This document shows positions 28,601-55,191 of a DNA stretch of 64,000 nucleotides, piece by piece. Below the pieces are notes generated by a model that was not told where the DNA came from, ran no database searches, and saw nothing but the letters and a program-made list of their open reading frames with translations. Positions within the stretch are counted from its first letter, which is position 1, and each line of letters begins with the position of its first letter. The stretch is taken from assembly GCA_007126035.1 (NCBI GenBank), contig SLCC01000022.1, positions 19,777 through 83,776 on the forward strand. The letters run 5' to 3'. The stretch comes from Gemmatimonadota bacterium. GTDB taxonomy: Bacteria; Gemmatimonadota; Gemmatimonadetes; Longimicrobiales; RSA9. Made by a program: the position numbers and the translations under genes.

Positions 28601-29182
28601 TCAGCGCTGGATTTCGAGAAGGGCGTCGAGCTGAGCCTGAACCGTCGATGGCGCGGTGCGGCTGAGCTCGGCGGAGCAGGGCGGCTCGAGTCTTCGTCCG
28701 GAGCAGATCATGGCCAGCGACCGGGTGCTGTCCCGGTCGAGCCAGAGCGTGTGGTAGCCTCGCGGTTCCCGCGGCGGGTAGGGCCTTTCCCTCCAGGCCG
28801 GTGCTCCGAACCGCCTGACGAACCTGTTCACGGCACGCTCCGGCCTTCGCCCCGCAGGCTCCAACTGCAGGCTGACAGAGACTGCGGCACCGTCGTGTAC
28901 GACTACCCGCACTTGACCGTCGGCGGTGATGCCTTCACAGAGGGTGACGGCAGGCGCCACCCCGCGTAGCCGACAGTTGAAGTTGCCCTGCGCCGCCGTT
29001 TCCGCCAGGACCGCTTCCTGTGACATGCCCAGGGTGAAGCCGGCGAGGCTGGTCGGCGGCGAGCCACCGCAGCCGGTGAGACACAGGCTCAGCACGAAAG
29101 CGAGGCACGACGGCCCGACCCTCCAGGCGCCTCTTCTCACCCCGGGCGGTATCACCCCGCCCATCGTTCTCAGAGTCTGCAT
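28601..29182 (-). CDS. Hypothetical lipoprotein
   Basis: Starting at ATG 29182 gives MQTLRTMGGVIPPGVRRGAWRVGPSCLAFVLSLCLTGCGG, which has a signal peptide and lipobox (LTGC). It is about 193 aa. No family was recognised. The 308-aa track ORF extends it over the neighbouring gene in another frame. Confidence 0.5.
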   Translation of the reverse strand: MQTLRTMGGVIPPGVRRGAWRVGPSCLAFVLSLCLTGCGGSPPTSLAGFTLGMSQEAVLAETAAQGNFNCRLRGVAPAVTLCEGITADGQVRVVVHDGAAVSVSLQLEPAGRRPERAVNRFVRRFGAPAWRERPYPPREPRGYHTLWLDRDSTRSLAMICSGRRLEPPCSAELSRTAPSTVQAQLDALLEIQR

Positions 29183-29187
29183 GGTCC

Positions 29188-29544
29188 TCAGAAGGCGCTC
29201 AGGATCAACCACTCTCCGAGGGTGCCCAGGGCAGACATCATGAGGGCGCCACCCAGTGCCCAGCCGAAGCTGTCGATGGTGAGTCGGTCGGTCAGGGCGT
29301 CTGTGAGCTTGAGGATGAGGGCGTTGATCAACCAGCGAGTGAGGAACGCCAGCAACCAAGCCAGCCCGAGGGTGACGATCCCGAGGAGGACGAAGAACAA
29401 CTGCCCCAGGAGGAAGTTGAGGATGCCGAACAGGGCGGCTACGACGATGGCGCTGCCGAAGCTCTTGACGTGGAAGCCGGGCAGTACGATGGCGGTGATC
29501 CATACTGCCAGGGACAGGATCAGCCATGAGAGGACGAGGCTCAT
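29188..29544 (-). CDS. DUF360 / phage-holin-4_2-family small membrane protein
   Basis: It is 118 aa with four hydrophobic helices. The sequence LSWLILSLAVWITAIVLPGFHVKSFGSAIVVAALFGILNFLLG is typical of the YvlD/DUF360 family. A GGAGGA Shine-Dalgarno sequence lies 5 nt upstream. Confidence 0.75.
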   Translation of the reverse strand: MSLVLSWLILSLAVWITAIVLPGFHVKSFGSAIVVAALFGILNFLLGQLFFVLLGIVTLGLAWLLAFLTRWLINALILKLTDALTDRLTIDSFGWALGGALMMSALGTLGEWLILSAF

Positions 29545-29608: not shown

Positions 29609-31918
29609 TCATGACGGGACAGCGGGCAGCACTACCGGCTCGACCGGATTCGAGGCTGGCTCCGAATCCACGGGTTTGATGGTGTCTGCGGCCTGGACGG
29701 TAGCCAGGGCGGCCAGGTTGACCACTGCCTCGGCGGTTCCGAACTGGATCATGTGGATGGGTCGGCGCGTGCCCACCAGGAGCGGACCCACCGTGACCGC
29801 ATCGCCCAGCAGTTCCAGGAGATGGACAGCCAGATGTCCTGACTGCAGGTCAGGGAAGATGAGAACGTTGGCATCCTGGCGCAGTTTGGAGAACGGGAAG
29901 AACTGTTCCCGGAACTCCCGTCCGAGAGCGGTGAGTAGCTGAATCTCACCGTCGATGGCCAGCTCCGGGTCCCTTTCCGTGGCCAGCTCGGTTGCCTTGC
30001 GGACCTTTCGGGCCAGGGGATGGTCCACGCTGCCATAGTTGGAGAAGGACAGCATGGCAACACGCGGCTCGATGCCCAGGGAGCGGACGAGGCTGGAGGA
30101 CATGACTGCCATGTCGGCCAGGGTCTGCGCATCCGGTTCAATGTTGACGGAGCAATCTGCCAGGAAGTAGGCGTCGTTGGGTCTCAGCACCATGTAGAGG
30201 CCGAAGATGCGGCGAACGTCGGGAGCGGGTCCTATGACTTCGAGGACTCTGCGGATCGATTCCGAGTAGGGTCCACTCATGCCTGCGATCACCAGGTCGG
30301 CGTCGCCCGTCTCCAGCATCATGCTCCCGAAGTAGACGGGATCGCGGAGCCGGGCGCGGGCCATGTCGCGGATCAGGCCCTCCCGGCCCCGTTTCCGGAA
30401 GAGCTGGTCCGCGAACTGTTCCAGACGCGGGTCATGGAGCGGGTCGATGACGGAGGTGCCCCTCAGTTCCAGGCCGTATCCAGCAGCGGCGCTCCGCACT
30501 TCGTCCTCATTGCCCAGGAGGATGGGTGATCCGATGCCCTCGTCCACCATGAGGGTGGCGGCGCCCAGAATGGCCCGGCTGGTGCCGTCGGGCAGGACGA
30601 TGCGTGGTTGTATCCGGCGGGCCTCCAGGATGACCTGGCGAAGCAGCTCGCGACCTGTCCCGACCCGGATCATGAGTCTGTCCTCGTAATGATCCTGCTC
30701 CACGGCCTGGGAAGCGACGTCCTCCCGGATGGCCTGTTCGGCAACGGCGGCGGACTCCCAGACCAGGATTCGCGGGTCCACGGGCTTCGGTAGCAGGTAC
30801 TCGGGCCCGAACTGGAAGACCTTGTCGCCGTATGCCCGGCTCACCTCTTCCGGCACTTCCTCCCGCGCCAGGTCGGCCAGGGCTCGGGCCGCGGCCAGCA
30901 TCATCCCTTCAGTGATCTGGGAGGCTCGCACGTCCAGGGCGCCCCTGAAGATGTATGGCGAGCTCAGATGGTCCACGATGGCGTTGGGGTCGGCGGACCG
31001 TGTGGTGAAGGCGATCACGTCGTGGCGGACCGTCCGGGCATGGTCGTACAGGATCTCGGGCTCCGGGGAGGCCAGGGCGATGACCACGGGGCGCGCGGCC
31101 ATGGAACGGAGCATCTCGGTTGTGAGCACACCGGGCGCCGAGGCGCCGAGAAAGATATCTGCTCCGCGCACGCCCTGATCGAGGGAGCGGAGATCACTCT
31201 CTCGGGCAAAGCGCATGTGGTGCGGCGTCAGATCGCTCCGCCCGGAATGGACGAGGCCGTAGCGGTCGTAGACCAGGATCTGCTCCGGGTCGATGCCCAG
31301 GGCGGTGAGGAGCCGCAGGCAGCCGAGTCCCACGGTCCCGGCTCCGGAGACCACTACCCGTACGTCCTTGGCCCGCTTGTCCACCAGGTCCAGAGCGTTG
31401 ATCACAGCGGCGACCACCGCCACGGCCAGGCCATACAGGTTCTCGTGGGAGACCGGCACCGGCAGGGCGGCCCTGAGGCGGTCGTATATGTCCAGGCCGT
31501 GTGGCAGGCTGATGTCCTGAAGGTTCACGCCGCCGAAGGAAGGAGCTATCGTGCGGACAGTGTCCACGAAACGATCCGGGTCGTGGGTGTCCAGCTCCAG
31601 GTCGAAGACGTCGAGATCCGCCAGGTGCTTGAAGAGGACGGCGATACCTTCCTGAAGAGGCTTGGCCGCCAGCGGCCCTACGTCGCCCAGTCCCGGCACT
31701 GCCGACCCATTGGTCACCAGGGCGATCAGGTTGCCGCGGGCGGTGTAGGTGTACGAGCTGGCAGGATCGGCCGCGATACGGCGAGCCGGGGCCAACGCGC
31801 CCGGCAGATATGCCAGCCGCATCTCCCGCGGGCTGAGGCAGGGCTTGCTCCCCTTCAACTCGATCTTGCCCGGCCGCCCGTTTTCGTGGTACTCGAGTGC
31901 CGACTTCTCGTCGATCAT
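29609..31918 (-). CDS. maeB: NADP-dependent malic enzyme MaeB (malic enzyme + phosphotransacetylase-like domain)
   Basis: The N-terminus MIDEKSALEYHENGRPGKIEL..., then NGSAVPGLGDVGPLAAKP and VVSGAGTVG, are followed by a C-terminal PTA-like domain (~330 aa). It is 769 aa from ATG 31918. The 958-aa track ORF is an upstream extension across the preceding gene. Confidence 0.85.
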   Translation of the reverse strand: MIDEKSALEYHENGRPGKIELKGSKPCLSPREMRLAYLPGALAPARRIAADPASSYTYTARGNLIALVTNGSAVPGLGDVGPLAAKPLQEGIAVLFKHLADLDVFDLELDTHDPDRFVDTVRTIAPSFGGVNLQDISLPHGLDIYDRLRAALPVPVSHENLYGLAVAVVAAVINALDLVDKRAKDVRVVVSGAGTVGLGCLRLLTALGIDPEQILVYDRYGLVHSGRSDLTPHHMRFARESDLRSLDQGVRGADIFLGASAPGVLTTEMLRSMAARPVVIALASPEPEILYDHARTVRHDVIAFTTRSADPNAIVDHLSSPYIFRGALDVRASQITEGMMLAAARALADLAREEVPEEVSRAYGDKVFQFGPEYLLPKPVDPRILVWESAAVAEQAIREDVASQAVEQDHYEDRLMIRVGTGRELLRQVILEARRIQPRIVLPDGTSRAILGAATLMVDEGIGSPILLGNEDEVRSAAAGYGLELRGTSVIDPLHDPRLEQFADQLFRKRGREGLIRDMARARLRDPVYFGSMMLETGDADLVIAGMSGPYSESIRRVLEVIGPAPDVRRIFGLYMVLRPNDAYFLADCSVNIEPDAQTLADMAVMSSSLVRSLGIEPRVAMLSFSNYGSVDHPLARKVRKATELATERDPELAIDGEIQLLTALGREFREQFFPFSKLRQDANVLIFPDLQSGHLAVHLLELLGDAVTVGPLLVGTRRPIHMIQFGTAEAVVNLAALATVQAADTIKPVDSEPASNPVEPVVLPAVPS

Positions 31919-34900
31919 CCTCTGCTCTCTTTCAGGGGATAACGCTGCAATGTCTCGTCGAGTGCTGTCCGGAACAGCGGGAGCGGGCGGGCCTGGAGAA
32001 TGTAGAGGTTCGATCCCTCCAGTGCGAACTCCAGGTCGAGCGGCTCGAAGAACGCTGCCTCCAGGTCCAGGGCCGTCTCGACCAGGGTCTCGAGCTCGGT
32101 GTACTCCAGAGCAGGTCGGAGGCGCTGATGGAATACGGTCTCGATGCGGCGGGTCCCGGAGCCGCGGGTGGCGTCGAAGACGCAGCGCTCCCGCTTGTCG
32201 CCTACCCGGTACCTGAGCTGGAGCGGACCGCCCCGCCGGTCGGTGCGGGCGATGTGGATCTCGTCGGCATCCACGGTGCCGGACACGATGCCCTGGCCCA
32301 GGCCCAGACCCACGTTCACGACCAGCTCCCGCATCTCGCCAGCCACCGCATCCACCGTCAGGACCACACCCGCCACCCGTGAGTCCACCATGCGCTGGAC
32401 CATGATCCCGCCGCCGCCGGGTGTTCCGGCAGTATTGCTCTGTCCCCGCTGGTGCAGGGCCCGTGGGCTCCACAGGGCCGCCCATGCCAAGCGGACGTGG
32501 CGGAGCACACTGTCGTCGCCGGTCACGTGTAGGAAGGTATCGAACTGCCCGGCCCAGGTGGCAGTGGGCCCGTCCTCCTCCAACGCGGAAGACCGGATGG
32601 CGACTGACGACGGCGCGCTGTCTTCCGCCGTCAGCCCATGGTAGCTGTCCAGGATCTCCGCCTCCATGCTCTCCGGGAACCTAGCATCGAGCCACAGCTT
32701 CCGGATGCAGCCGAACTTGCCCGAGCAGTCCAGCTCGGACCGGGCCAGCACCTGGTCGATGGCATCCTGGAGCGGAATCGTTTCGCCCGTCTGGACCCGG
32801 ACATGACTTCCCAGGGCCAGGTGGAACGCCCGATCGGTGATGACGAACCACGGCGGGACCATGCCGCTCGGCAGCACGCGGGCGACCTCGCCCAGGCTGG
32901 CGGCCTTGCGGCCGATGATCGACTCCATACCCAGCCCGCTCTCATCCCAGCCCACGATGAGACGGGAGTCGGCGGCAACCCGCCTGGCGCCCTCGATGGC
33001 CAGTGCGGCGGCGCGGGCCCGCTCCAGGACCTCCTGGTCACGTGGATCCCCTTCAGTGGGCGCGGCCTGGTCCATCCAACCGATGGCCCGGAGGGCGAAC
33101 AGGATTCGCGGGTCGCCGGGCTGCTGTCGTGCGAGGGCGTCCAGCTCATGGAGCAGGGCTGAGCGGAACTCCGCGAGCCGGTCGATGGAGAGGCGGTCCA
33201 GTTCGGGCAGGCTCCTGTCCGGCGAGGCGGTAGCGGCGCCGACCCGGCCGTCCGGGAGGCCCTGCTCCATGACCGACACTGAGCGGAGGCTCTCCCTCAG
33301 GCGGACGGCGGTCAGGCGTATGAAGAGCACGGGCAGGGGCTGGGTGAGCAGGGGCGTCACGGCCCTGGCGATCTGGACGGCAGCCCGCAACTGGTGCAGG
33401 AGGGCGACGACGGCTTGGTCCCGAGCGGTCTGCGCCGCCGGCCCAAGGCGCGGGCTGCGGCAGAGAACGTCCAGGAGCGCCCGTCGTTCGCTGGTGGCGG
33501 CAGCGGCGCCAGGCGCTGCCTGTCCGGAAAAGAGCTCCCGTACCGCGTACCGGGCCAGGGCAGGCCTGTCCATGCGCCGGAGAGCCCGGTTCAGTTGATG
33601 CGATACCCGCAGCAGGGCGCCGCGTGCTTCCAGCAGGGCTCGATCGTCCCTTGCGGCGCCCACTGCCCGTTCTGCGCTTCCCAGGTCGCGGAAGCCCTGG
33701 TGCAGGACCAGTGCTTCCCGGTCCGAGCCCAGCACGCTCAATGTCTCCGCATCCGAGTCCACGACCACCAGCTCGCCTTCCCGGACGTCAACCTCGCAGT
33801 CCCGGACCCTGGTCCAGCAGCGGACCTCCAGCGAGCGGACCCGACCGCTGCGCTCACGCAACTCGGTACGCCGGAGGGTGAGCACGTGCTCGTTGGGGCG
33901 GAGCTGTCGCCAACTCCCCTGGACGATGACGGATGGCTTCCCCAGCTCAAGGGCCAGGAGCCCGACGTGACTGAGGGTGCCGCCGCCAGTGGAGACGGCC
34001 GCTACCGAGCGGGCCAGGCATGGTGAGTCGGATGGCTGGATGGTCGGCGCGATGAATACGGCGCCTTCGAATTCAGCGGGGTCACGCCCCGGCTGGGCGA
34101 TCCGAACGATGCCCGACGCCCGGCCCGGGGCGGCAGGCAGGGCTCGGACGGAGCGTTCACCCGGGTACGGCGCCGATGGCGGCCATGGGTTCTTCGTGGC
34201 GAAGAGGTCGCGCACCTCGGCAACCCGATCCGGCTTCAGCTCCACCGGCTGGTCCTCGTCGGGACACCGGTAGTTGTCCCTGACCAGGAGCCGCATCAGC
34301 TCCGCGATGCGGATCTCCGCCGGCCGCTTCCAGGCGGTCGAATCCCGGTCCCTCACCCGGTAGGGGACGTCGCCCCTGGTGGCGAAGGCGAGGCGGGCCT
34401 TGCCGCGATCGTCGCGAAGGACGAAGAGGGTAGCGTCCCCATCGCGCAAGGCCAGAGTGGCACGCTCCACCGGATAGCCCTGGATGCTCCCCGCGGGAAG
34501 GAACCGCAACCAGCGCTCGAGCGGGCCTATCACTGAAGCCGTACGTATGGCCTCCCTGAGCCGCGCAGGTGGGCCGGCAAGGATGCGGGCCAGGCGGACA
34601 GCTTCATGCTCGCGCCGGTAGCTGTGGCGGGGGGCGGGCATGAGCTGGCCGTTCCGCGCCACCACCTCGCCCCGCACCACGGCGGAGCGGAGAGGGTCGA
34701 GTACCGCCCGCTCCAGGTCGAGCTGGCCGGCCCCACCGGTCCGCACCGTGGGTGCGGGCAATGGGAGGCGGATGCCGGCCCGACCGAGCTCCCTGCGGAC
34801 CCGACCGATCAGGCCACTGCCCGTGGTGCCAGGTAGCGGCTCGTCCTGGGGCGGGATGAGCCCGTGGCGCTCCAGGAAGTCCGCCCATCGGTCTGCCAGC

Positions 34901-36876
34901 TCGGCCCGCTCGTGCGCCGGCAGGTCCGCCGCCGCCAGCCTCCAGTCGAGTTCCATGAGGTGGGGAACGAGGCGCATCAACATGCTCGCCTTCTCCACGA
35001 TGTCGGATAGCTCGATGGCCCGCTCCTTGTCATAGCGGGCTCGAAGGCGAGTGCCGTCCAGGTCCACATGGAAGCCCAGGCGACGCAGGATGTGCTGGAT
35101 CCCGGACACGCCCAGGTCCGGATGCTCGGCCATCTCGTACTGGCTGACGGCGTAATACTCCAGGTCTATCATGCCCCCCCTGCGCGGCGGAGACAGATCG
35201 AGCCGGATGAAGGCGGGGTGGTTACGGAACGAAACGTAGAACTGGACCTCGGTGTCGTATACCAGGATCCGCACCGTGGGCAGGCTCGTGTATCCATGGA
35301 TGAGATGGTGCTTGAACGACTCCACCACGAGCCGCACCGCCAGCGGTAGGCTGGAACCTTCCTGCTCCTCGAAATCCAGGTACCGGACGCGTTGGACGAC
35401 GGCAGGATCGTGGCCGTCCCGGAGCAGTAGCAGGTCCACCGTCTGGTTGGCCGCGCCGCCGGAGCCGAAGAGCCGGAATGCATGCCTGAGACCACGCTGG
35501 TGCAGGTAGCGTTTCAGGCCGTGTAGGGTCCTCACCTCCTGTATCGACCCGGGGTCTTCGAACGCCTGGATCGAGTAGGCTACGTCCATTGGCAGGACGC
35601 TCCCGGGGTCGTCTGCCCGTTCCACCGCCCGGTCCACCTCCCGCCTCAGCTCAGCGAATCCGGCCGACACCTCGGCCGCCTCTGGATCGAAGCCGGAGAA
35701 CAGGCTCGTGTGGTCGGCGATGACACGTTCCAGCAGATCGAGGATACGGCCAGCGCGCTCCGCCGTAACCGGTGCCACCTCCAGGATCTCGCCCAGGAGG
35801 ACGGCGTGGTCCACGGAGAGGCGCCGGAACCTGGCTATCCGGTCACTGTCCAGCTCCGTTCCCACGGGTGTGGCTTCCTCGGTGCCCCGGGCCATCACCG
35901 CCCATCCCGTCCAGCGCCCGGCCGTCTCGAAATCTCGATCTATGACGCGCGCCTCGTCAGGCCTCAGGGCGAATGGGAAACTGCCCTCGATCCGCGTCAC
36001 CGTCACCGGCTCCGCCACCAGCTCATCGGCCACGCGGGGCCAGCCCAGGCGGGCGACGACGGCGGCGAGGCGGTCGCGGCCCAACACGGATTCAGACGCC
36101 TGCATGGTTTCCAGTGATTCCACCCGGCGAGCCAGACCCGGCGTGAGGGCGACGAGGTCTCCGTGAGTGGCACGGGTGTACGCCAGGTGGTGAGCCAGGG
36201 CACTGGCAGCCGTCGAGCCGAGGACCCGCCGGATTCGCTCTTCCGGCGCAGGCTCATCATCGGCGTCCAGCAATCGGGCCGCGAGAAGCCTGACAGGGAG
36301 CGGGATGGATGGCTCCAGGAACCGACCAATCGGGTCACCTGGGACCAGGGGCAGGCGCGGGTCGTCTACGCTGGAAAGGAGCTGGCCCAGGTCGTCCGGG
36401 ACCTGGGCGTCAGGGGCCGACGGCAGCGCGCAGGCCACTGCAAGGGCCAGGTCCAGATCGGACTCGATGTGACCATCGCGGGCCGCAGCGAGTGTCAGAC
36501 TTAATGCCTGGTCGCGGATCTCCTGCGACCGGGCGGACAGGAGCTCGACAAGCACGGGTGCCGATGAGTCGAGTGCGTGGGCCTGTTCCGCCAGGAGCCG
36601 GAAAAGAGCCGGTGCGGCACGGCTGCGGCTGTCCCGGAGGAGCGAGGCGAGGCGGACGAGGACTGGGACGGGCGATTCCGAGGGTGGCAGGGCCGCCTGG
36701 ATCTGGCCAAACGCCTCCTCCACGCGCTTGGGGTCTCCCAGGGCCACGCCCATATGAGACTCGATGGTCTCCAGATGGTCGGTAATATCGGGACTGGCGG
36801 CTGCGGTCGTCACGTCAGCAGCCACGGAACCAATCTCCCTGCCCTGGTTCTGTCCCATGCCAGTTCCCTCCGCCAC
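31915..36876 (-). CDS. Giant multidomain protein with a ~900-aa unassigned N-terminal region, a PEP-utilising-enzyme phosphohistidine swivel domain, a ~260-aa helical linker and a PPDK_N-type ATP-grasp domain
   Basis: This is a single uninterrupted 1,653-codon frame with GC3-rich codon use. The GTG at 36876 is the first possible start. ATG 36858 (M7) has a GGAGGG Shine-Dalgarno sequence 8 nt upstream and is the more likely start. Its stop TGA overlaps the maeB ATG (ATGA). Domain motifs are listed in the two sub-features below. Confidence 0.8.
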   Translation of the reverse strand: MAEGTGMGQNQGREIGSVAADVTTAAASPDITDHLETIESHMGVALGDPKRVEEAFGQIQAALPPSESPVPVLVRLASLLRDSRSRAAPALFRLLAEQAHALDSSAPVLVELLSARSQEIRDQALSLTLAAARDGHIESDLDLALAVACALPSAPDAQVPDDLGQLLSSVDDPRLPLVPGDPIGRFLEPSIPLPVRLLAARLLDADDEPAPEERIRRVLGSTAASALAHHLAYTRATHGDLVALTPGLARRVESLETMQASESVLGRDRLAAVVARLGWPRVADELVAEPVTVTRIEGSFPFALRPDEARVIDRDFETAGRWTGWAVMARGTEEATPVGTELDSDRIARFRRLSVDHAVLLGEILEVAPVTAERAGRILDLLERVIADHTSLFSGFDPEAAEVSAGFAELRREVDRAVERADDPGSVLPMDVAYSIQAFEDPGSIQEVRTLHGLKRYLHQRGLRHAFRLFGSGGAANQTVDLLLLRDGHDPAVVQRVRYLDFEEQEGSSLPLAVRLVVESFKHHLIHGYTSLPTVRILVYDTEVQFYVSFRNHPAFIRLDLSPPRRGGMIDLEYYAVSQYEMAEHPDLGVSGIQHILRRLGFHVDLDGTRLRARYDKERAIELSDIVEKASMLMRLVPHLMELDWRLAAADLPAHERAELADRWADFLERHGLIPPQDEPLPGTTGSGLIGRVRRELGRAGIRLPLPAPTVRTGGAGQLDLERAVLDPLRSAVVRGEVVARNGQLMPAPRHSYRREHEAVRLARILAGPPARLREAIRTASVIGPLERWLRFLPAGSIQGYPVERATLALRDGDATLFVLRDDRGKARLAFATRGDVPYRVRDRDSTAWKRPAEIRIAELMRLLVRDNYRCPDEDQPVELKPDRVAEVRDLFATKNPWPPSAPYPGERSVRALPAAPGRASGIVRIAQPGRDPAEFEGAVFIAPTIQPSDSPCLARSVAAVSTGGGTLSHVGLLALELGKPSVIVQGSWRQLRPNEHVLTLRRTELRERSGRVRSLEVRCWTRVRDCEVDVREGELVVVDSDAETLSVLGSDREALVLHQGFRDLGSAERAVGAARDDRALLEARGALLRVSHQLNRALRRMDRPALARYAVRELFSGQAAPGAAAATSERRALLDVLCRSPRLGPAAQTARDQAVVALLHQLRAAVQIARAVTPLLTQPLPVLFIRLTAVRLRESLRSVSVMEQGLPDGRVGAATASPDRSLPELDRLSIDRLAEFRSALLHELDALARQQPGDPRILFALRAIGWMDQAAPTEGDPRDQEVLERARAAALAIEGARRVAADSRLIVGWDESGLGMESIIGRKAASLGEVARVLPSGMVPPWFVITDRAFHLALGSHVRVQTGETIPLQDAIDQVLARSELDCSGKFGCIRKLWLDARFPESMEAEILDSYHGLTAEDSAPSSVAIRSSALEEDGPTATWAGQFDTFLHVTGDDSVLRHVRLAWAALWSPRALHQRGQSNTAGTPGGGGIMVQRMVDSRVAGVVLTVDAVAGEMRELVVNVGLGLGQGIVSGTVDADEIHIARTDRRGGPLQLRYRVGDKRERCVFDATRGSGTRRIETVFHQRLRPALEYTELETLVETALDLEAAFFEPLDLEFALEGSNLYILQARPLPLFRTALDETLQRYPLKESRG
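31972..32964 (-). other. Domain: PPDK_N-type ATP-grasp nucleotide-binding domain, aa ~1305-1635 of the giant ORF
   Basis: The matching motifs are IIGRKAASLGEV (compare GGKNASLGEM), VPPWFVITDRAF, VAIRSSALEEDGPTATWAGQFDTFLHV (compare VAVRSSATAEDLP.ASFAGQ.ETFLNV), WAALWSPRALHQR and IMVQRMVDSRVAGVVLTVDAV...NVGLGLGQGIVSGTVDADE. These follow the N-terminal domain of PEP synthase closely. Confidence 0.75.
33742..34164 (-). other. Domain: PEP-utilising enzyme mobile (swivel) phosphohistidine domain, aa ~905-1045 of the giant ORF
   Basis: The stretch ALPAAPGRASGIVRIAQ...FEGAVFIAPTIQPSDSPCLARSVAAVSTGGGTLSHVGLLALELGKPSVIV...VREGELVVVDSDAETLSVLG aligns by eye with the PpsA/PPDK/EI swivel domain (G.A.G......ILV...T.P......A.A.VT..GG.TSHAAI.AR..GIP). 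The predicted catalytic His is residue 970 (codon 33967..33969). Confidence 0.75.
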
Positions 36877-37112
36877 TCGAACGCCGCGAGGTGACGCTCG
36901 CCGGGCCGCTACTGAAGCCTATCGGCAAAGAGTGCTCGGGACAAGGAGTCGCCGCGGCCGGGCCCGACGGGGCACCAGATAGCCCGTTTTTCCGACGGCC
37001 ACCGGACCGGGAGTCTGGCACGGGCATCCCTGCCCGTACGCCATACGTATTGACCTGCCTTCCCCGCCATCTCTAGCTTCCCGGGACAGGCGTATCCCGC
37101 TAACCCTTTCCC

Positions 37113-38792
37113 ATGGAAACAGCCATGTCACATCCCCCCGTTGTCGGGACTACCGAACAGGCGGCTGCGGCGCCGCCTTTCGCATACCAGGACCCCTACC
37201 CCCTGGGTCAGGATACCACGCGCTACCGGAAGCTGGATGGTTCGGAGGCGTACGTGTCCGTAGAGCGGTTCGCCCACAAGGATGTCTTGAGGGTCGACCC
37301 GGAAGCACTGACGGTTCTGACGCGTGAAGCGATGCGGGATGTCTCCTTCCTGCTCAGACCGAGTCACAACGAGCAGGTGGCGACGATCCTCTCCGACCCG
37401 GAGGCGTCAGCCAATGACCGGGGCGTGGCATTGGCGTTCCTGCGCAACGCCGTGGTCTCGGCGCGCTTCGAGCTGCCGTACTGTCAGGATACCGGCACGG
37501 CCACCGTCGTGGCGAAGAAGGGACAGCAGGTCTGGACGGGGGGTGGCGACGAGGAGGCCATCGCCCGGGGCGTCTACCGCACCTACACGGAGGAGAACCT
37601 CCGCTACTCCCAGACGGTGCCGCTGGACATGTACCGGGAGAAGAACACGGGAACCAACCTACCGGCCCAGATCGACATCCAGGCCATTGACGGGGCTGAG
37701 TACAAGTTCCTCTTCATGGCCAAGGGTGGGGGCAGCGCCAACAAGACGATGCTCTTCCAGGAGACCAAAGCGCTGCTCACGCCCGAGAAGCTGGAGGCGT
37801 ACCTGGTCGAGAAGATGAAGTCACTGGGGACGGCGGCCTGCCCACCGTATCACATAGCTTTCGTGATCGGGGGTACCAGCGCCGACGCGGTCATGAAGAC
37901 CGTGAAGATGGCCAGCGCCCGCGAGCTGGATGAACTGCCCACCACCGGGAACGAGCACGGTCGCGCGTTCCGGGACGTGGAGCTGGAGGACCGGCTCCTG
38001 CGAGCAGCGCACGGTCTGGGGATCGGGGCCCAGTTCGGGGGCAAGTACTTCGCCCACGACGTGCGGGTGATCCGCCTCCCCCGGCACGGCGCCAGCTGTC
38101 CGGTGGGCATGGCCGTCTCCTGCTCGGCGGACCGGAACGTCCGGGCTAAGATCACGCGGGACGGCCTGTTCGTGGAGGAGCTGGACCGTGATCCAGGGCG
38201 CCTGCTGCCTGAGCAGTACCGGGAAGGTACCCACGCCCACGGCCACCGCGTGGACCTGTCAAAGCCCATCGAGGAAACGCTCCAGGAGCTGTCGTCCCTC
38301 GACGTAGGTGACGCCCTGCTCCTCACCGGAACCATCGTGGTGGCCCGGGACATGGCCCATGCCCGGTTCAAGGAGATCCTGGACCGGGGCGAGCCGCTAC
38401 CCGGGTACCTCAAGGAGTACCCGGTATACTACGCCGGCCCGGCAAAGACTCCGCCGGGAAAGGCCTCCGGCTCCTTCGGCCCCACCACGGCGGGCCGGAT
38501 GGACAGCTACGTAGACCTGCTCCAGAGCCACGGCGGCAGTCGCATCATGATTGCCAAGGGCAACCGCAGCCAGCAGGTGACGGACGCCTGCAGGAAGCAC
38601 GGCGGCTTCTACCTGGGCTCCATCGGTGGGCCCGCATCCCTGCTGGCGGAGGAGAACATCAAGAAGGTAGAGTGCATCGATTTCCCCGAACTGGGGATGG
38701 AGGCGGTCTGGAAGATCGAGGTGGAAGAATTCCCGGCCTACATCCTGGTGGATGACAAGGGAAACGACTTCTACAAGCAACTGGGGCTGTAG
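37113..38792 (+). CDS. fumA: Class I (Fe-S) fumarate hydratase, fused alpha/beta type
   Basis: It carries the motifs [44 protein letters not shown] and C-terminal [13 protein letters not shown]...YYAGPAKTP...GPTTAGRMD. It is 559 aa. ATG 37125 is an alternative start. Confidence 0.85.
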
Positions 38793-38865: not shown

Positions 38866-39285
38866 TCAACGGAGATCCCCGCAGGCGACGACCTCCTGCA
38901 GCAGCTCCGGTGAGCGGTGCACGTTCACATGGTAGTCCTCGCCCGGCACCAGCTGGGCACGGATATGGGCCGTGGCTGTGGCTCCCCCGGCCGCAGTGGG
39001 CCGCAGCGGCGGGTATTGTGCCGGGTCGCCCACAATGGGACCGCCCGTCTCACAGGTCCCCCGGTGGATGTGCCAGGGGTGGGTAGCCCCGGCCTCACCG
39101 CCCGCCAGATTGATGGCAACCGCCGTCTGACCCGGGGCGGTGACGGCCCGAACCGCAGCCCGGACCTCGGTATCACCCACCGGCTGGACGTCCGCGTTCC
39201 ACTCCCGCGGCTCGTACACCGGCACAGTGGCGCAGGCCGTCACCATGGCGATGGCGGCCAGGATCGGAGCGTATGCGAAGCGCAT
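38866..39285 (-). CDS. Small lipoprotein with an SOD/CHRD-like HIH-G motif
   Basis: It has a signal peptide and lipobox (AAIAMVTACAT). It is 139 aa and beta-rich. The motif HPWHIHRGTCETGGPIVG resembles the metal-site region of Cu,Zn-SOD-like and CHRD-domain proteins. The family assignment is tentative. Confidence 0.55.
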   Translation of the reverse strand: MRFAYAPILAAIAMVTACATVPVYEPREWNADVQPVGDTEVRAAVRAVTAPGQTAVAINLAGGEAGATHPWHIHRGTCETGGPIVGDPAQYPPLRPTAAGGATATAHIRAQLVPGEDYHVNVHRSPELLQEVVACGDLR

Positions 39286-39635: not shown

Positions 39636-40343
39636 ATGATGCTCGGAGGCGCCGTGATGGCTAGGGAGGGGCTGGTCCTGGAAGGGATTGCGCGGCGGTT
39701 CGGCCGAAAGTGGGCGCTACGAGGTACGAGCGTGCGTGCGGAGGCGGGGACCGCGATCGCGCTGATGGGGCACAACGGCAGCGGTAAGACGACGCTGCTG
39801 CGGATCGTGGCGACGACGCTGCGACCGACCCGTGGCAGCGGCACTGTCCTTGGCCACGACCTGTTGAATGAGGCTGCCGCGATCCGGGAGCACGTGGGCG
39901 TGTTGTACCACGCTGCCGGTGTGTATGGTGACCTGACGGCCCGTGAGAACCTGGAGTTCTCGCGCAAGATGTGGGGTGGTCGTGCGGTGGTGGGAGTGGA
40001 TGCGGCGCTGGATCGAGTGGGATTGTCATACGCGGCGGGTGAGCGTGCGGCTGGTTTCTCGTCGGGTATGACGCGTCGCCTGGCGCTGGCGCGGGTGGTC
40101 ATGCGCCCGCCGACGATCCTGCTACTGGACGAGCCTTATGCGAGCTTCGACGCGGACGGCATCGAGTTGGTGAACGAGCTGGTCCGGGAGACAGCGGACG
40201 GCGGCGGTATCGTCCTGATAGCGACCCATGACCCGGAGCGGTCGAACGGCGTGGTGGACCGTGTGATCACCCTTCATGAGGGGCGCGTGGTCCCGGAGGG
40301 TGTTGCCGCGGGCCCTAAGCTGGTGGCGGAGGCGGTGCGATGA
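39636..40343 (+). CDS. ccmA: Heme exporter ATP-binding protein CcmA
   Basis: It has an ABC ATPase Walker A (GHNGSGKTTLLR), signature (FSSGMTRRLALA) and Walker B (LLLDEP). It is the first gene of the ccm operon. Confidence 0.8.
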   Translation: MMLGGAVMAREGLVLEGIARRFGRKWALRGTSVRAEAGTAIALMGHNGSGKTTLLRIVATTLRPTRGSGTVLGHDLLNEAAAIREHVGVLYHAAGVYGDLTARENLEFSRKMWGGRAVVGVDAALDRVGLSYAAGERAAGFSSGMTRRLALARVVMRPPTILLLDEPYASFDADGIELVNELVRETADGGGIVLIATHDPERSNGVVDRVITLHEGRVVPEGVAAGPKLVAEAVR

Positions 40344-41026
40344 GCTTCCGTAGCGAGACGAACCGGGTGGCGGCGGTGGCCTGGAAGGACCTGACCACGG
40401 AGCGGCGCTCGAAGGCCAACTTCAACGCGGTGCTGTTCCTGGCGGCCCTCATGCTGCTCATGTTCGGTTTCGCCCTGGGTCCGGACGCGGCGTCGTTGCG
40501 GCTGGCGGCGGCGGGCATCGTATGGCTTACGATAATGTTCAGTGGGAATCTGGCGTTCCATCGGTCGTACCAGGTCGAGCTGGAAGGCGGCGCCCTGGAG
40601 ACACTGCTCCTCTATCCCGGCGCCCGCAGCTCTATCTTCCTGGGCAAGCTGATCGCGAACCTGGTGTTCGTGTTGCTGGTGCTGATGGCCCTGATCCCGA
40701 TCGCCATCGTTCTCTACGACATCCCGGTTGGTCCGTCGATTCCGTTGCTGTTCCTGGTCATCTTCCTGGGCACGTTCGGGTTCGTGACCCTGGGGACGTT
40801 CTACGCGTCCATGGCGAGTCGGAGCCGTGCCAGGGAGGTCCTGCTTCCCCTTCTGTTGTTCCCCATGCTGATTCCGGTGCTGCTGGCTTCGGTGGAGGCG
40901 ACGGGCGCCCTGTTGCAAGGGGACCCCATGGGCGAGGCGGGGCGGTGGATCAGGCTGCTGGTGTCCTTTGATGTCATCTTCCTGGGCGCGTCCATCCTGG
41001 CGTTCGGGGCCGTGATCGAGGAGTGA
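40340..41026 (+). CDS. ccmB: Heme exporter membrane protein CcmB
   Basis: A 228-aa polytopic membrane protein between ccmA and ccmC. It shows the CcmB-like pattern (F..E...G.LE.LLL.P). It has an ATGA overlap with ccmA. Confidence 0.8.
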   Translation: MSFRSETNRVAAVAWKDLTTERRSKANFNAVLFLAALMLLMFGFALGPDAASLRLAAAGIVWLTIMFSGNLAFHRSYQVELEGGALETLLLYPGARSSIFLGKLIANLVFVLLVLMALIPIAIVLYDIPVGPSIPLLFLVIFLGTFGFVTLGTFYASMASRSRAREVLLPLLLFPMLIPVLLASVEATGALLQGDPMGEAGRWIRLLVSFDVIFLGASILAFGAVIEE

Positions 41027-41027
41027 G

Positions 41028-41747
41028 ATGCAAGAATTGAAAGCACTTTCGGAGGAGCGGGCGCCGAAGTGGCTGATCGGCTTGACGGCGATCGCGTTCA
41101 TGGCCGTGGCGGGCGCCCAGGTCTTCGGCTTCATCACATCGCCGGCGGCGGAGCAGTATCAGCACTCGCAGAAGATCATGTACGTGCACGTGCCGGCGGC
41201 ATGGAACGCGTTCCTGGCCTTCATCGTGGTATTCTGGGCGAGCCTGGTCTATCTCTGGAAGCGTAGCGAGGGTGCGGACCTGTTGGCGGAGTCGGCCGCG
41301 GAGGTCGGTGCGGTGTTCACGGGGCTGACCCTCCTGCTCGGCTCGATCTGGGGGAAGTGGGCATGGGGGGTGTGGTGGACGTGGGATCCCCGGCTGACGT
41401 CGACGGCGGTGCTGTTCATCATCTTCGTGGGTTACCTGGCGCTGCGTTCCTTCACGGAGGACCCGGAGCGGCGGGCCACGTGGAGCGCTGGGGTGGGGAT
41501 CTTCGGAGCGCTGAACGTGCCCATCGTCTACATGTCCGTGCGGTGGTGGCGCACGTTGCACCAGGTGCAGTCGTCGCCGGAGACGATGTCGGCGGAGTAC
41601 GTGACAGCACTGCGAGTGAACGGGATAGCCTTCCTGCTGCTCCTGGTCGCCGTCCTGGGTTGGCGGTACCGGGCGGCGCGGATCCAGCGTCGGGCTGAGG
41701 CACTGCACGAGGAAGCGATACTCGAGGGGAGGCAGGTCCATGTTTGA
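41028..41747 (+). CDS. ccmC: Heme exporter protein CcmC
   Basis: It has the tryptophan-rich WWD motif WGKWAWGVWWTWDPRLT and conserved His-containing loops. It is 239 aa. Confidence 0.85.
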   Translation: MQELKALSEERAPKWLIGLTAIAFMAVAGAQVFGFITSPAAEQYQHSQKIMYVHVPAAWNAFLAFIVVFWASLVYLWKRSEGADLLAESAAEVGAVFTGLTLLLGSIWGKWAWGVWWTWDPRLTSTAVLFIIFVGYLALRSFTEDPERRATWSAGVGIFGALNVPIVYMSVRWWRTLHQVQSSPETMSAEYVTALRVNGIAFLLLLVAVLGWRYRAARIQRRAEALHEEAILEGRQVHV

Positions 41748-41886
41748 GACGGATGTCAACGTCTGGAACTACGTGATCGGGGCGTACGCCGTAAGTTGGC
41801 TGACGGTTATCGGCTATACGCTTCGCCTGTGGGTCCTGAACCGGCGTGCCTCACGGTTCGCCGCTGAGCTTGGAGGCGACGTATGA
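41740..41886 (+). CDS. ccmD: Heme exporter protein CcmD (48 aa; below the ORF-track size cutoff)
   Basis: Hand translation from ATG 41740 gives MFETDVNVWNYVIGAYAVSWLTVIGYTLRLWVLNRRASRFAAELGGDV. This has a single TM helix and a basic tail. It overlaps the ccmC stop by 8 nt and the ccmE start by ATGA, which is the canonical ccmD position. Confidence 0.6.
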   Translation: MFETDVNVWNYVIGAYAVSWLTVIGYTLRLWVLNRRASRFAAELGGDV

Positions 41887-42320
41887 ACAAGCGGTTCATC
41901 GGGGTGTTCGGCACCGTCCTGGTCCTGACTGGTTTCGGGTATCTGATCTGGGGCGGCCTGGGCGGGAGCCTGGTCTATTTCGTCACGCCCACGGAGCTCC
42001 TGGCCCGCGGCGAGGCTGCGTACGAAACGCCGGTCCGACTGGCGGGTAACGTGGTGCCCGGCTCCGTGAACTGGAACGCGCGGGAGCTGGATCTTCGCTT
42101 CCATCTGAGTGATGGAGAAACGGACATCGAGGTGTGGTCGAAAGGTGCTCCGCCGGCCATGTTCCAGGACACGATGGGTGTGGTGGTGGAAGGACGCTAC
42201 AACCGGGCGGGCATCTTCGAGTCGTCGAGCGTGATGGTGCGGCACTCGAACGAGTACAAGGCGCCGCCGGAAGGTCACCGGCCGGCGGACACCTACGAAG
42301 CATTGATCCGGGAGGAGTAG
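41883..42320 (+). CDS. ccmE: Cytochrome c-type biogenesis heme chaperone CcmE
   Basis: It has an N-terminal TM anchor, an OB-fold core (RLAGNVVPGSV...L.F.L.D....I.V...G..P..F) and a C-terminal His motif (VRHSNEYKAPPE, compare HDENY.P). Confidence 0.8.
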   Translation: MNKRFIGVFGTVLVLTGFGYLIWGGLGGSLVYFVTPTELLARGEAAYETPVRLAGNVVPGSVNWNARELDLRFHLSDGETDIEVWSKGAPPAMFQDTMGVVVEGRYNRAGIFESSSVMVRHSNEYKAPPEGHRPADTYEALIREE

Positions 42321-42325
42321 CGTCA

Positions 42326-44373
<2,048 letters not shown>

Positions 44374-44377
<4 letters not shown>

Positions 44378-44979
44378 GTTGGAAGCGGGCCGGCATAGCG
44401 ATGCTGGTGGGGATACCCCTGCTCATGCTACTGGCGTGGGGCATGGTCCGTGGCGATCCGCGGATCATCCCGTCGCCGCTGATCGATCAGCCTGCGCCCG
44501 ACTTCGAGCTGCCGGTCATGGCGCCGGCACGGACGCCGGACGGTGAGGACGTGACCGGGGAGGTGGTGCGTCTGTCCGACCACCTGGGTGAGGTGGTGGT
44601 GCTCAATTTCTACGCATCGTGGTGCGTGCCCTGCCGGATCGAACACCCGGCGCTGGTCCGTACCGCCGCCCGCTACCGGGACCGTGGCGTCCAGTTCTAC
44701 GGTGTCGTCTACCAGGACACGCCCCAGGCCATCCGGACCTATCTCCGTCAGATGGGTGCGAAGGGGTATCCCAGCCTGCTGGACCCCGGCCAGCGTGTGG
44801 CCATCGACTGGGGTCTGGCCGGCGTGCCGGAGACGTTCATCGTCGGCAAGGACGGCCGGATCAGTAAGAAGATCTTCAGCGCGGTGACGGAGCAGGAGTT
44901 GGTTACGGAGATCGAGAGGCTGTTGGCCGAGCCGTCGCCCGCCGCGGCGCCGGCATCGACCCCGGAGGTGTCATTTTGA
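44374..44979 (+). CDS. ccmG: Thiol:disulfide interchange protein CcmG/DsbE
   Basis: It has a TM anchor plus a thioredoxin fold with active site WCVPC and a GVPETF motif. It has an ATGA overlap with ccmF. Confidence 0.8.
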
Positions 44980-45437
44980 AGCGGATCATGATGGTTCTGT
45001 CGCTCGTCGCCATGGCTGTTCCAGCAGCGGCGCAGGACGCGCAGCCGGAAGGGATCTACATAGGTCAGGGGCCGCTAACCAATGCCGTGGAGGAGGCGAG
45101 GGCGGCCAAGCTGGCATCCCAGCTCCAGTGCCCGGTCTGCCAGGGCCAATCCATCGCCGCGTCGCCGGCGCCCATGGCCAGACAGATGAAGGACCTCATC
45201 CGGACCCAGGTCTCAGAGGGCTACACGGATGAGGAGGTCAGGCAGTACTTCATGAGCAAGTACGGCGAGTGGGTGCTTCTGGAGCCCAAGGCCGCCGGCT
45301 TCAATCTGCTGGTCTACATCCTGCCCGTGGCTGCGTTGCTCGCCGGGATCGGGCTGATGTTTGTCCTGGTGCGCCGGTGGTCGACCCCGGCTCCCGCCCC
45401 GGCGGAGGCAGCCGAGGGCGACGACGCCGCAGGCTGA
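44976..45437 (+). CDS. ccmH: Cytochrome c-type biogenesis protein CcmH
   Basis: It has a signal peptide, the motif LQCPVCQGQSIAASPAPMARQM (LRCxxCQ type) and a C-terminal TM helix. It is 153 aa. Confidence 0.75.
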   Translation: MKRIMMVLSLVAMAVPAAAQDAQPEGIYIGQGPLTNAVEEARAAKLASQLQCPVCQGQSIAASPAPMARQMKDLIRTQVSEGYTDEEVRQYFMSKYGEWVLLEPKAAGFNLLVYILPVAALLAGIGLMFVLVRRWSTPAPAPAEAAEGDDAAG

Positions 45438-45491
45438 GGCGGGCGACGCGGGCTGCGCGGTAACCCTCGCGCGGCTCCGGCGGGCAGGTTA

Positions 45492-45520
45492 GCTTCCCCG
45501 CCAGGACGGCGCGGGGAAGC
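45492..45520 (+). terminator. Hairpin after the ccm operon
   Basis: GCTTCCCCGC (45492..45501), a 9-nt loop, then GCGGGGAAGC (45511..45520). No U-tract follows. Confidence 0.35.
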
Positions 45521-45557
45521 GCGCTGCCGACGACCAAACCAGACTCCCGGGCGCCCC

Positions 45558-46442
45558 ATGTATCCCCACCTGTTCACAATCGGCGACTTCACCGTGACGT
45601 CGTTTGGTGTCATGATGTTCGTCTCCTTCGTGGTGGGGGCGTGGGTCCTGGCACGGCAGTTCGACCTGCGCGGGCTCGACCCGGAGGCGGCGTGGGACAT
45701 GCTCCTGTGGGTTGCACTGGCCGGAATAGTGGGCGCAAAGTTGTATTACGTGGCCCTGCACCACGAGGCTCTGTTCGAGAACCCGCTCCGTGAGCTGACG
45801 AACCGGGGCGGGCTGGTCTGGTACGGCGGGCTCATCGGCGGAGTGAGCGCGTTCTATTGGCAGGCCAGGAAGCGCAAGCTACCGCTGGGGATGGCTTTCG
45901 ACGCTTCCGCTCCGGCTCTGGCCATCGGCTATGGGTTGGGCCGCACTGGCTGCTTCCTGGTAGGCGACGACTATGGACGTCCCACAGAGTCGTGGGTGGG
46001 CATAGCCTTCCCTGAAGGCTATCCGCCGAGCACGGCCGGCTACTTCCGTTCCATCGGCACCCAAATCCCCGCCGACATACCCGACAGCGCCGTCCTGGCC
46101 GTCCACCCCACGCAGCTCTACGAGATAGGCCTGGCGCTGATCATGTTCGCTGTCCTCTGGCGGCTCTCGGGCCGGCTGCCTACGTGGCGCCTGTTCGGTC
46201 TCTACCTGGCCATGTATGGCGTAGCGCGCTTCGGCATCGAATTCGTCCGGGCGAAGACGGACCTGGTGGTCTTCGGGATGACTACGTCACAGGTGGCCAG
46301 CCTGGTGCTGCTGGGGCTGGCGGCTGGGATCTGGATCCGGACGCGGGAAGCCGAGCCCAGGGTGGCAGGGCCGGATGATTCTGCGCGGACGGCGCCACCG
46401 GCGGGGCGCCCGGGCGGCGGCGACTCCTCGACCGGCCACTGA
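45558..46442 (+). CDS. lgt: Prolipoprotein diacylglyceryl transferase Lgt
   Basis: It carries the motifs FTVTSFGVMMFVSF, GAKLYYV, GGLVWYGGLIGG, GRTGCFLVGDDYGRPT, HPTQLYE and EFVR. Confidence 0.9.
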   Translation: MYPHLFTIGDFTVTSFGVMMFVSFVVGAWVLARQFDLRGLDPEAAWDMLLWVALAGIVGAKLYYVALHHEALFENPLRELTNRGGLVWYGGLIGGVSAFYWQARKRKLPLGMAFDASAPALAIGYGLGRTGCFLVGDDYGRPTESWVGIAFPEGYPPSTAGYFRSIGTQIPADIPDSAVLAVHPTQLYEIGLALIMFAVLWRLSGRLPTWRLFGLYLAMYGVARFGIEFVRAKTDLVVFGMTTSQVASLVLLGLAAGIWIRTREAEPRVAGPDDSARTAPPAGRPGGGDSSTGH

Positions 46443-55146: not shown

Positions 55147-55191
55147 AGGTTGCGGCGGTCGGAAGTTACCGTCTTCTCCAGCCTGCTACAA

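Follow-up and report, generated by a model that had tools for sequence, protein, structure and literature searches.

Dikinases that carry phosphate on a swivelling histidine domain (PpsA, PPDK, GWD and RPH) are textbook cases of domains that move over long distances, and the node between phosphoenolpyruvate (PEP) and pyruvate is under their control. Here we describe a two-gene operon that encodes a giant protein with the domains of such a dikinase and, directly downstream, a partner protein resembling the malic enzyme MaeB. The operon lies in a 64,000-nt stretch of DNA from a Gemmatimonadota bacterium (GenBank assembly GCA_007126035.1, contig SLCC01000022.1, positions 19,777 to 83,776). We refer to this whole stretch as the window, and coordinates given without a locus name are window coordinates.

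Several described systems depart from the arrangement of PPDK. In potato GWD1, two CBM45 modules are followed by a helical central domain, a His domain (His992) and a C-terminal ATP-binding domain, an order that its authors remark differs from that of PPDK and RPH (PMC13553574); the central domain is all-helical, with 20 helices (PDB 9HA9/9QVI; PMC13553574). In the two-component dikinases HpeHI, CreHI and PpsAB the substrate domain and a C-terminal swivel are on one protein and the ATP-grasp domain is on another (PMC12167813). VadK (Rv1127c) of M. tuberculosis, a PPDK derivative without the barrel, autophosphorylates on His and binds and regulates enzymes of the methylcitrate cycle (PMC13400623).

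The giant family is predicted to work as a His-swivel dikinase like these, but it belongs to none of the PEP-utilising, GWD/PWD or RPH families, because it has neither the PEP barrel nor the carbohydrate-binding modules (CBMs) and all-helical central domain of GWD nor a substrate domain of the RIF-binding type. Its reversed layout is already known; what is new is an orphan, conserved acceptor-side body and an exclusive pairing with a rewired paralogue of malic enzyme. We found no paper in the literature describing the giant family or its pairing with the MaeB-like gene. Taken as a whole, our reading is that the giant protein is a dikinase of the pyruvate node that forms a complex with a MaeB-derived subunit lacking catalysis of its own, and we put the probability of this reading at roughly 0.4.

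The giant gene and its dikinase domains

The first-pass annotation of the window, made from the letters alone, had taken a minus-strand open reading frame (ORF) at 31915-36876 for one gene. This ORF is present, with 1,653 codons counted from a GTG at 36876, and its GC content at third codon positions (GC3) stays at 0.75-0.87 across all 150-codon segments; as GC3 is uniform, the ORF can be read as one coding frame from end to end. Judged by its surroundings, an ATG at 36858, six codons (18 nt) inside the GTG, is the likelier start: it is preceded by a Shine-Dalgarno-like GGAGGG 7 nt upstream (36866-36871, minus strand), and the 1,647-aa product that it gives is 100% identical to a database protein (P0001) beginning at the same ATG. 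With this start the giant gene occupies 31915-36858 (minus strand, stop codon included). Residue numbers count from ATG 36858; GTG-based numbers are higher by six.

About 90 homologues have the same length, which together with the uniform GC3 rules out several genes or a frameshift artefact and bears out the single gene. Gene calling divides the giant gene in three loci (L009:8001-13144, L090:7001-12192 and L091:7001-12168), giving products of ~1,100-1,440 aa and 270-605 aa. Comparison by tblastn places a frame change within the swivel hairpin in L090 and many frame changes in L091, where the partner gene is broken too; error-rich long-read contigs are among the split cases. These splits are frameshifts, none of them at a domain boundary, and we rejected natural two-component versions in favour of assembly errors or pseudogenes.

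Pfam found the domains in the order that had been predicted from the sequence, PF00391 at aa 937-993 (E-value 4.6e-7) and then PF01326 at aa 1319-1632 (E-value 7.5e-57), both in GTG-based numbering. PF02896, the PEP/pyruvate barrel said to be missing, was indeed not detected in the giant protein by Pfam, nor was any other credible family, and NCBIfam agrees. Neither Pfam nor NCBIfam gave an alignment to a PEP/pyruvate TIM barrel beyond the ATP-grasp and swivel domains, no PDB profile match to one was obtained for aa 265-900 at E<=10, and the topology of the N-terminal body in the AlphaFold2 model differs from that of a (beta/alpha)8 barrel.

When a profile of 42 family members was compared with the PDB, it matched the His domain of PPDK (E-value 7e-18) and the ATP-binding domain of PpsA (E-value 7e-72). 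The swivel carries the sequence STGGGTLSH, and T/SxxGGxxxH is the dikinase swivel motif (PMC12167813). Its predicted phospho-carrier, His964 (His970 in GTG-based numbering; codon 33967-33969, minus strand), was the catalytic residue proposed in the first-pass annotation; this His and the surrounding G-G-x-L-S-H are invariant in 82/82 aligned homologues, at identities of 28-67%. The ATP-grasp signature is equally constant in the 82 sequences, namely GxK, RSS..ED, the Q of VQRMV, the E-F of D-x-E-F and the Q-x-R of LQARP. The nucleotide motif VAIRSSALEEDG...AGQFDTFL aligns with that of PpsA and is of the PpsA (water-dikinase) type, and the ATP-grasp domain was aligned with PDB entries 2ols and 9dae.

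AlphaFold2 models were built on the 82-sequence alignment in two overlapping parts, aa 1-1054 (predicted local confidence pLDDT 87.7, predicted template modelling score pTM 0.85) and aa 894-1647 (pLDDT 92.6, pTM 0.92). In these models the phosphohistidine swivel domain, with a long beta-hairpin insert, takes up aa ~896-1046 (33721-34173), a poorly conserved spacer of about nine long helices follows at aa ~1047-1300 (32959-33720), and a PpsA/RPH-type ATP-grasp domain with invariant GGK, RSS..EED, VQRMV, D-x-E-F and LQARP motifs stands C-terminally at aa ~1301-1640 (31939-32958), all on the minus strand. The general interpretation offered earlier, an ATP-dependent, His-mediated phosphotransferase with an unassigned acceptor, stands. 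We have hardly any doubt that the giant gene is real and undivided and that its product can pass phosphate from ATP to the His.

With PpsA (EC 2.7.9.2) and PPDK (EC 2.7.9.1) the giant protein shares a homologous ATP-grasp domain (28% identity to N. meningitidis PpsA), a homologous swivel with the T/SxxGGxxxH motif and the PpsA-type nucleotide-binding motif, and the same chemistry would be expected from these motifs, ATP being converted to phosphohistidine, AMP and inorganic phosphate (Pi). It differs from them in that the swivel comes first, the PF02896 barrel is missing, an orphan N-terminus of ~890 aa and a helical spacer of ~250 aa are added, and the regulatory Thr two residues before the His is not present (GTLSH versus GMTSH). 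Against the curated equivalog models of NCBIfam the giant protein scores 209 bits, with cut-offs of 598 and 739.75. Relative to PpsA, PPDK and RPH the domain order is reversed, as the first-pass annotation had stated; its further claim of a novel circular permutation is not supported, because the same order occurs in plant GWD1 and is split alike in the two-component dikinases. Indeed, a head-to-tail fusion of the two proteins of HpeHI, CreHI or PpsAB gives the order of the giant protein.

Foldseek comparison of the modelled ATP-grasp domain with the PDB gave RPH (5hv1, E-value 4.6e-19), HpeI (9goj, E-value 3.8e-17) and PpsA (E-value 1.3e-16), with a root-mean-square deviation of ~3 Å for RPH and PpsA. 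The fold is thus closest to that of RPH and HpeI, to which the swivel motif STGGGTLSH is another likeness, and the NCBIfam models of RPH, PigC and RedH match the ATP-grasp domain, as would be expected if the giant protein were an RPH-like phosphotransferase of xenobiotics or antibiotics, or a dikinase of aromatic compounds. However, the full-length models of this type (RPH, PigC, RedH and PRK06241) align only over model positions ~5-310, within the ATP-grasp domain. In contrast to RPH and the two-component dikinases, the giant protein has no RIF-binding-type substrate domain, its parts are fused via the long helical spacer, and its partner is a MaeB paralogue, a pairing without logic for resistance. 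The giant gene sits in a housekeeping chromosomal context and occurs in none of 72,556 plasmids, and PADLOC returned only a marginal WGR_XIII match for the giant protein and none for the partner; a defence system, plasmid or mobile element was rejected too. A role in handling xenobiotics is, in our view, very unlikely.

The N-terminal body

The ~890 aa ahead of the swivel had been described as unassignable, and they proved so in every search: no Pfam match was found in 10 family members, no PDB profile match at E<=10 and, for the N-part model, no Foldseek match in the PDB below E-value 1e-3 except the swivel (matches to RPH cover ~213 columns at E>=0.01); no known acceptor domain was recognised. 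Scanning 1.84 billion representatives with the N-terminal profile yielded 249 matches. The best 150 of these all have the same architecture or are fragments of it, so that the N-terminal module was seen in no other architecture among them; a word-index search agrees.

The body as modelled by AlphaFold2 starts with helical repeats (~20-276) and a beta-hairpin domain, passes through a helical bundle with an alpha/beta core (~338-612) and continues with further helical and alpha/beta parts up to a Pro-rich connector. The all-helical repeat region (aa ~20-276; 36031-36801, minus strand) is always present and poorly conserved (0.46; 0.4% invariant). At aa 338-612, 10-12% of the columns are invariant, a share that equals that of the ATP-grasp domain, with 0.4-3% in the flanks. 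The conserved, family-specific core, a helical bundle with an alpha/beta domain, extends over aa ~338-660 (34879-35847, minus strand), and a helical region with a second alpha/beta domain, ending in the Pro-rich connector to the swivel, over aa ~661-895 (34174-34878, minus strand).

Invariant residues of the core are H446, K449, R450, H453, Q454, E537, H547, R552, D554, D565, H579, R608, D610, K611 and D638. Since their density equals that of the ATP-grasp domain, and since His, Lys, Arg, Asp and Glu make up most of them, we infer that the core may be a second active site, and a candidate acceptor site, rather than a passive scaffold. On balance we lean towards placing the acceptor site in this core.

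Several derivations of the body were tried and set aside. The resemblance of 'GGMIDLEY' in the core to 'PLDLEFA' had suggested a second, degenerate ATP-grasp domain, which was rejected at an hhalign probability of <1%; an origin of the N-terminus from the malic-enzyme or PTA domain of the partner was rejected at ~0.1%. Relationship to the GWD central domain, the RIF-binding domain of RPH or the PEP barrel found no support in NCBIfam, Foldseek, PDB profiles or the description of GWD1. The marginal WGR_XIII match of PADLOC lies at aa 70-218 (region 36876-36223; 16 bits, E-value 7.6e-4) and is taken as a low-complexity resemblance among helical repeats.

The body also bears on a comparison with GWD1 and PWD (EC 2.7.9.4/5), which are likewise large monomeric multidomain dikinases (1,400-1,650 aa) composed of an acceptor-side body, a His domain, a linker helix and a C-terminal ATP-binding domain. 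A bacterial counterpart of plant glucan, water dikinase would phosphorylate glycogen or another glycan. Pfam finds no carbohydrate-binding module in the giant protein, neither CBM45 nor CBM20 at E<=1, and the N-terminus is a helical repeat instead. Its body is mixed alpha/beta, in contrast to the all-helical GWD central domain, and has no match by profile or Foldseek in the PDB set searched, which possibly does not include 9HA9. Furthermore, the spacer between His and ATP-grasp domains is much longer, the proteins are bacterial, no glycogen genes recur nearby, and a MaeB-like partner is universal in place of a link to starch metabolism. We give a glucan dikinase very little credence.

Pairing with a rewired MaeB-like protein

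What the first-pass annotation lacked was the context: the giant gene leads an operon of two genes, an obligate pairing in which the second gene encodes a MaeB-derived protein. The stop codon of the giant gene and the start codon of the partner gene overlap in ATGA (31915-31918, minus strand), an arrangement of translational coupling; the same 4-nt overlap is seen in 50/79 loci.

The family is wide in distribution. A search of 5.8 billion proteins retrieved 91 relatives of the giant protein, nearly all of 1,600-1,750 aa and with identities down to 31%, and the swivel-then-ATP-grasp order noted at the outset recurs in every one of them (PF00391 before PF01326). Species genomes of GTDB were scanned with an N-terminus-specific profile, which gave 151 species and 80 loci, all from metagenome-assembled genomes (MAGs); loci were also fetched for diverse homologues. 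Carriers span at least 12 phyla and belong to Acidobacteriota, Eisenbacteria, Krumholzibacteriota, Myxococcota, Desulfobacterota, Gemmatimonadota, Planctomycetota, Calditrichota, Ignavibacteria/Bacteroidota, Elusimicrobiota, Methylomirabilota, Verrucomicrobiota and Alphaproteobacteria.

A MaeB-like gene is located directly downstream on the same strand in all 108 loci with enough flanking DNA (81 from genomes or assemblies and 27 from metagenomes); for the genome or assembly loci, 81/81, this means at least ~450 nt of downstream sequence. As a reciprocal control, a metagenome scan with the partner profile provided 80 loci, which separated cleanly into two groups. In the rewired class (29 loci) the C-terminus of a giant protein is encoded directly upstream in 27 of the 27 loci with upstream room, and in the canonical class (51 loci, KEDDDNNN at all eight active-site positions) a giant gene is upstream in none, many of these loci having 2-7 kb of upstream sequence. 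Given 27/27 against 0/51, the association is exclusive in both directions. No fusion of the giant and partner genes was found among the loci examined, and one apparent fusion ORF of 2,593 aa turned out to be an off-frame shadow ORF. That the two proteins form an obligate functional partnership seems to us nearly certain.

The partner gene of the window (29609-31918, minus strand) encodes 769 aa with malic, Malic_M and PTA-like domains, as seen by Pfam, NCBIfam and alignment. In this architecture, in its similar length and in the GxGxxG and Tyr112 that it keeps, it is like MaeB; as in MaeB, the catalytic Ser-Arg of Pta is missing from its PTA-like domain. In real MaeBs the PTA-like domain binds acetyl-CoA. 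The active site is another matter. Where active MaeBs read K-E-D-D-D-N-N-N the window partner reads I-Q-D-E-N-S-V-D, with 7/8 positions replaced, and compared with E. coli and Bdellovibrio MaeB the motif LEDI has become LQDI, EGKG has become EGIA and FHDDQHGTA has become SHENLYGLA. All eight canonical residues are present in 51/51 environmental MaeBs of the canonical class and in the MaeBs of E. coli and Bdellovibrio, which are kinetically characterised (PMC12704298). Because real MaeBs do not vary at any of these positions, the changes in the partner carry meaning.

We surveyed these positions in 69 full-length partners, using human ME2 numbering; its assignment to the bacterial motifs was checked on a canonical large malic enzyme encoded in locus L090, in which all the classical motifs are present. 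The catalytic Lys (K183) is kept in 0/69, with M, I, V, A or L instead; the metal ligand E255 is also kept in 0/69, being Lys in 57/69. The catalytic Asp (D278) is Glu in 63/69 and the metal ligand D279 is Asn in 63/69, and among the substrate-binding residues N421 is Thr in 58/69, N466 is hydrophobic (L/V/M) and Asn in 0/69, and N467 is Asp in 66/69; D278, D279, N421 or N467 is kept in at most 3/69. Retained are D256, Tyr112 (67/69) and the GxGxxG dinucleotide-binding glycines. The roles of these residues are those established from ME2 structures (PMC7847962, PMC13461788).

The partners thus differ from MaeB in a pattern conserved across the clade. Both catalytic residues (Lys and Asp), two of the three metal ligands (a Glu and an Asp) and three Asn that bind the substrate have been replaced, and such partners are found only beside the giant gene. 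Across phyla they are ~63% identical to each other and ~42% identical to the MaeBs of E. coli and Bdellovibrio, which share 50% mutually. The window partner scores 638.7 bits with the NCBIfam NADP-malic-enzyme model PRK12861, below its cut-off of 1178. We are confident that the partner is not a normal malic enzyme, and its active-site residues suggest that the annotation 'NADP-dependent malic enzyme' is probably wrong for the clade in >150 species.

If the pocket no longer works as that of a malic enzyme, it could have become the acceptor site of the dikinase. In that case phosphorylated His964 would dock on the MaeB-like subunit and phosphorylate an enolpyruvate or hydroxy-acid there, with the N-terminus of the giant protein as docking platform. 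Dikinases with substrate and ATP sites on separate proteins exist (HpeHI, PpsAB; PMC12167813), malic-enzyme pockets natively bind pyruvate or enolpyruvate and C4 acids, and the replacements are conserved and not decaying (E255 to Lys in 57/69, N467 to Asp in 66/69, Tyr112 in 67/69), so that the Lys may stand in for the metal. Yet the changes of K183 to M/I/V and of N466 to L/V/M are hydrophobic and look like pocket filling, and a site on the partner leaves the highly conserved N-terminal core of the giant protein unexplained. We consider this arrangement improbable.

Another alternative, in which there is no small-molecule product, would make the giant protein a regulatory kinase or sensor that autophosphorylates on His964, and its phospho-state or a transfer to protein would control enzymes at the C4/pyruvate node, be it the partner or others. 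VadK is a precedent, a barrel-less PPDK derivative that regulates by binding (PMC13400623); like the giant protein it has no PEP/pyruvate barrel, it autophosphorylates on the swivel His, as would be expected of the giant protein, and it is tied to enzymes of central carbon metabolism. Strict pairing with translational coupling across phyla is what one typically sees for proteins that associate stoichiometrically, the MaeB-like protein appears to be disabled for catalysis, and the N-terminal helical repeats, as modelled, may resemble a protein-binding scaffold. VadK itself, however, is a protein of ~490 aa with the normal order (ATP-binding domain, then His) and with neither extra domains nor a dedicated operon partner. 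The density of invariant His, Lys, Arg and Asp in the N-terminal core, equal to that of the ATP site, fits a catalytic region better than a docking surface. A search for a phospho-acceptor among the clade-defining substitutions of the partner found no clade-specific invariant His, and the other candidates, Tyr219, Tyr295 and Ser393, were unconvincing. We think regulation as the sole function rather unlikely.

Genomic setting and a possible role at the pyruvate node

Beyond the partner, no neighbour is general to the loci, and the sole recurrent extras make pyruvate and CO2 from C4 acids. In five loci, mostly of Desulfobacterota, the gene immediately before the giant gene has the same orientation and encodes a canonical large malic enzyme with all the classical motifs; two of these loci (L061 and L103) may be one contig; the order is real malic enzyme, giant gene, rewired MaeB-like gene (L090:5251-7053, L034:7489-9204, L061:740-2497, L103:149-1906 and L027:1455-3194). 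Oxaloacetate decarboxylase alpha (HMGL-like/PYC_OADA/biotinyl) and beta genes adjoin the pair in 8/118 loci (L004, L007, L017, L049, L054, L059, L078 and L079), and in two of these, L017 (5901-9048) and L079, they immediately precede it in the same orientation. A beta-carbonic anhydrase gene comes after the partner in two to three loci (L006/L055 and L089). The divergent class I fumarase gene of the window is counted with these neighbours.

Our preferred reading can be put as a sequence of steps. The C-terminal PpsA-type ATP-grasp domain would bind ATP and load its beta-phosphate onto His964, with release of AMP and Pi. The swivel, tethered by the Pro-rich connector and the ~250-aa helical spacer, would then carry the phosphate to the N-terminal centre at aa ~430-640, as the anatomy of the models suggests. 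The giant protein would be the catalytic subunit of a stoichiometric complex with the partner. The rewired MaeB-like protein would act as a non-catalytic scaffold or as an allosteric sensor of acetyl-CoA and/or NADP(H); we read it so because the dinucleotide-binding glycines and the PTA-like domain are kept, the pocket is partly hydrophobic, and a Lys takes the position of the metal-ligand Glu. As to the acceptor, it would be one of the C3 acids at the pyruvate node, the best candidate being pyruvate, converted to PEP, or the reverse. Pyruvate/PEP is a leading guess, unproven and tentative, made because of the ancestry of both proteins (a PpsA-like engine and a MaeB-like partner) and the occasional neighbours that lead from C4 acids to pyruvate.

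Several considerations weigh against this reading. The chemistry of the N-terminal core, which has no detectable relative, is guessed from residue types. A protein of 1,650 aa would be an odd substitute for a PpsA of 790 aa. To our knowledge, every PEP-forming dikinase described uses the TIM barrel. The metabolic neighbours occur in only ~13% of the loci, and all carriers are uncultured MAGs. Finally, the new Lys, Glu, Asn, Thr and Asp of the partner are conserved and could mark a new ligand site or new catalysis instead of a dead pocket. In its most specific form, the pair would be a hitherto unrecognised central-carbon complex, namely a PEP-forming or PEP-consuming, ATP-conserving dikinase with a pyruvate site that is not a TIM barrel and with a pseudo-malic-enzyme as scaffold and as sensor of acetyl-CoA/NADP(H). 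It would work at the node that links malate/oxaloacetate, pyruvate and PEP, in >150 species, all uncultured, from at least 12 phyla; in this form we regard it as doubtful.

In the window itself, a class I (Fe-S) fumarate hydratase gene, FumA (37113-38792, plus strand), is divergent from the giant gene across 254 bp (36859-37112), and this neighbour is confined to the lineage of the window itself (L001-L003). Neither in the 254-bp interval nor elsewhere around the operon was a sigma-70-like promoter, a terminator or an Rfam element, riboswitches included, detected. The operon is also flanked by three small minus-strand genes, none of them conserved beside the pair in other lineages. They encode a 139-aa protein without a family match (38866-39285), a 193-aa predicted lipoprotein with a signal peptide ending in LTGC and no family match (28601-29182), and a 118-aa membrane protein of PF04020 (Phage_holin_4_2; 29188-29544).

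Farther away, a DeoC/LacD-family class I aldolase (PF01791; 26115-27200, plus strand) is encoded ~2.4 kb past the partner on the opposite strand. It was not recurrent in the other loci, and it could be a gluconeogenic fructose-bisphosphate aldolase. At 39636-46442 (plus strand) lies a full set of genes for cytochrome c maturation by system I (ccmA, ccmB, ccmC, ccmD, ccmE, ccmF, thioredoxin-like ccmG and ccmH) with lgt after it, an ordinary housekeeping neighbourhood. A homologue of BshC, of bacillithiol biosynthesis (7150-8814, plus strand), lies among the housekeeping genes LpxB, MurJ, UvrC, Der, GpsA and SurE and suggests a Gram-negative lineage that uses bacillithiol. Two minus-strand ORFs without Pfam matches that failed the GC3 filter (47221-49023, 600 aa, and 55186-56193, 335 aa) are perhaps not genes but shadow ORFs such as a high-GC genome produces.

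The central metabolism of the lineages that carry the pair has been reconstructed almost wholly from annotation. Current pipelines label the giant protein 'PEP/pyruvate-binding protein' or 'pyruvate,water dikinase' and the partner 'NADP-dependent malic enzyme', and both labels are probably wrong. The mislabelled partner misleads metabolic models of these soil and sediment bacteria, in which a malic enzyme is counted where its catalytic residues are missing. The giant family, for its part, keeps the dikinase engine and joins it to a large, confidently modelled orphan body with an apparent second active site. Should the pair prove to connect C4 acids, pyruvate and PEP by a new route, or to regulate that node in a new way, central carbon metabolism would gain a component, and the partner would be a clear bacterial case of a core metabolic enzyme turned into a pseudoenzyme subunit.

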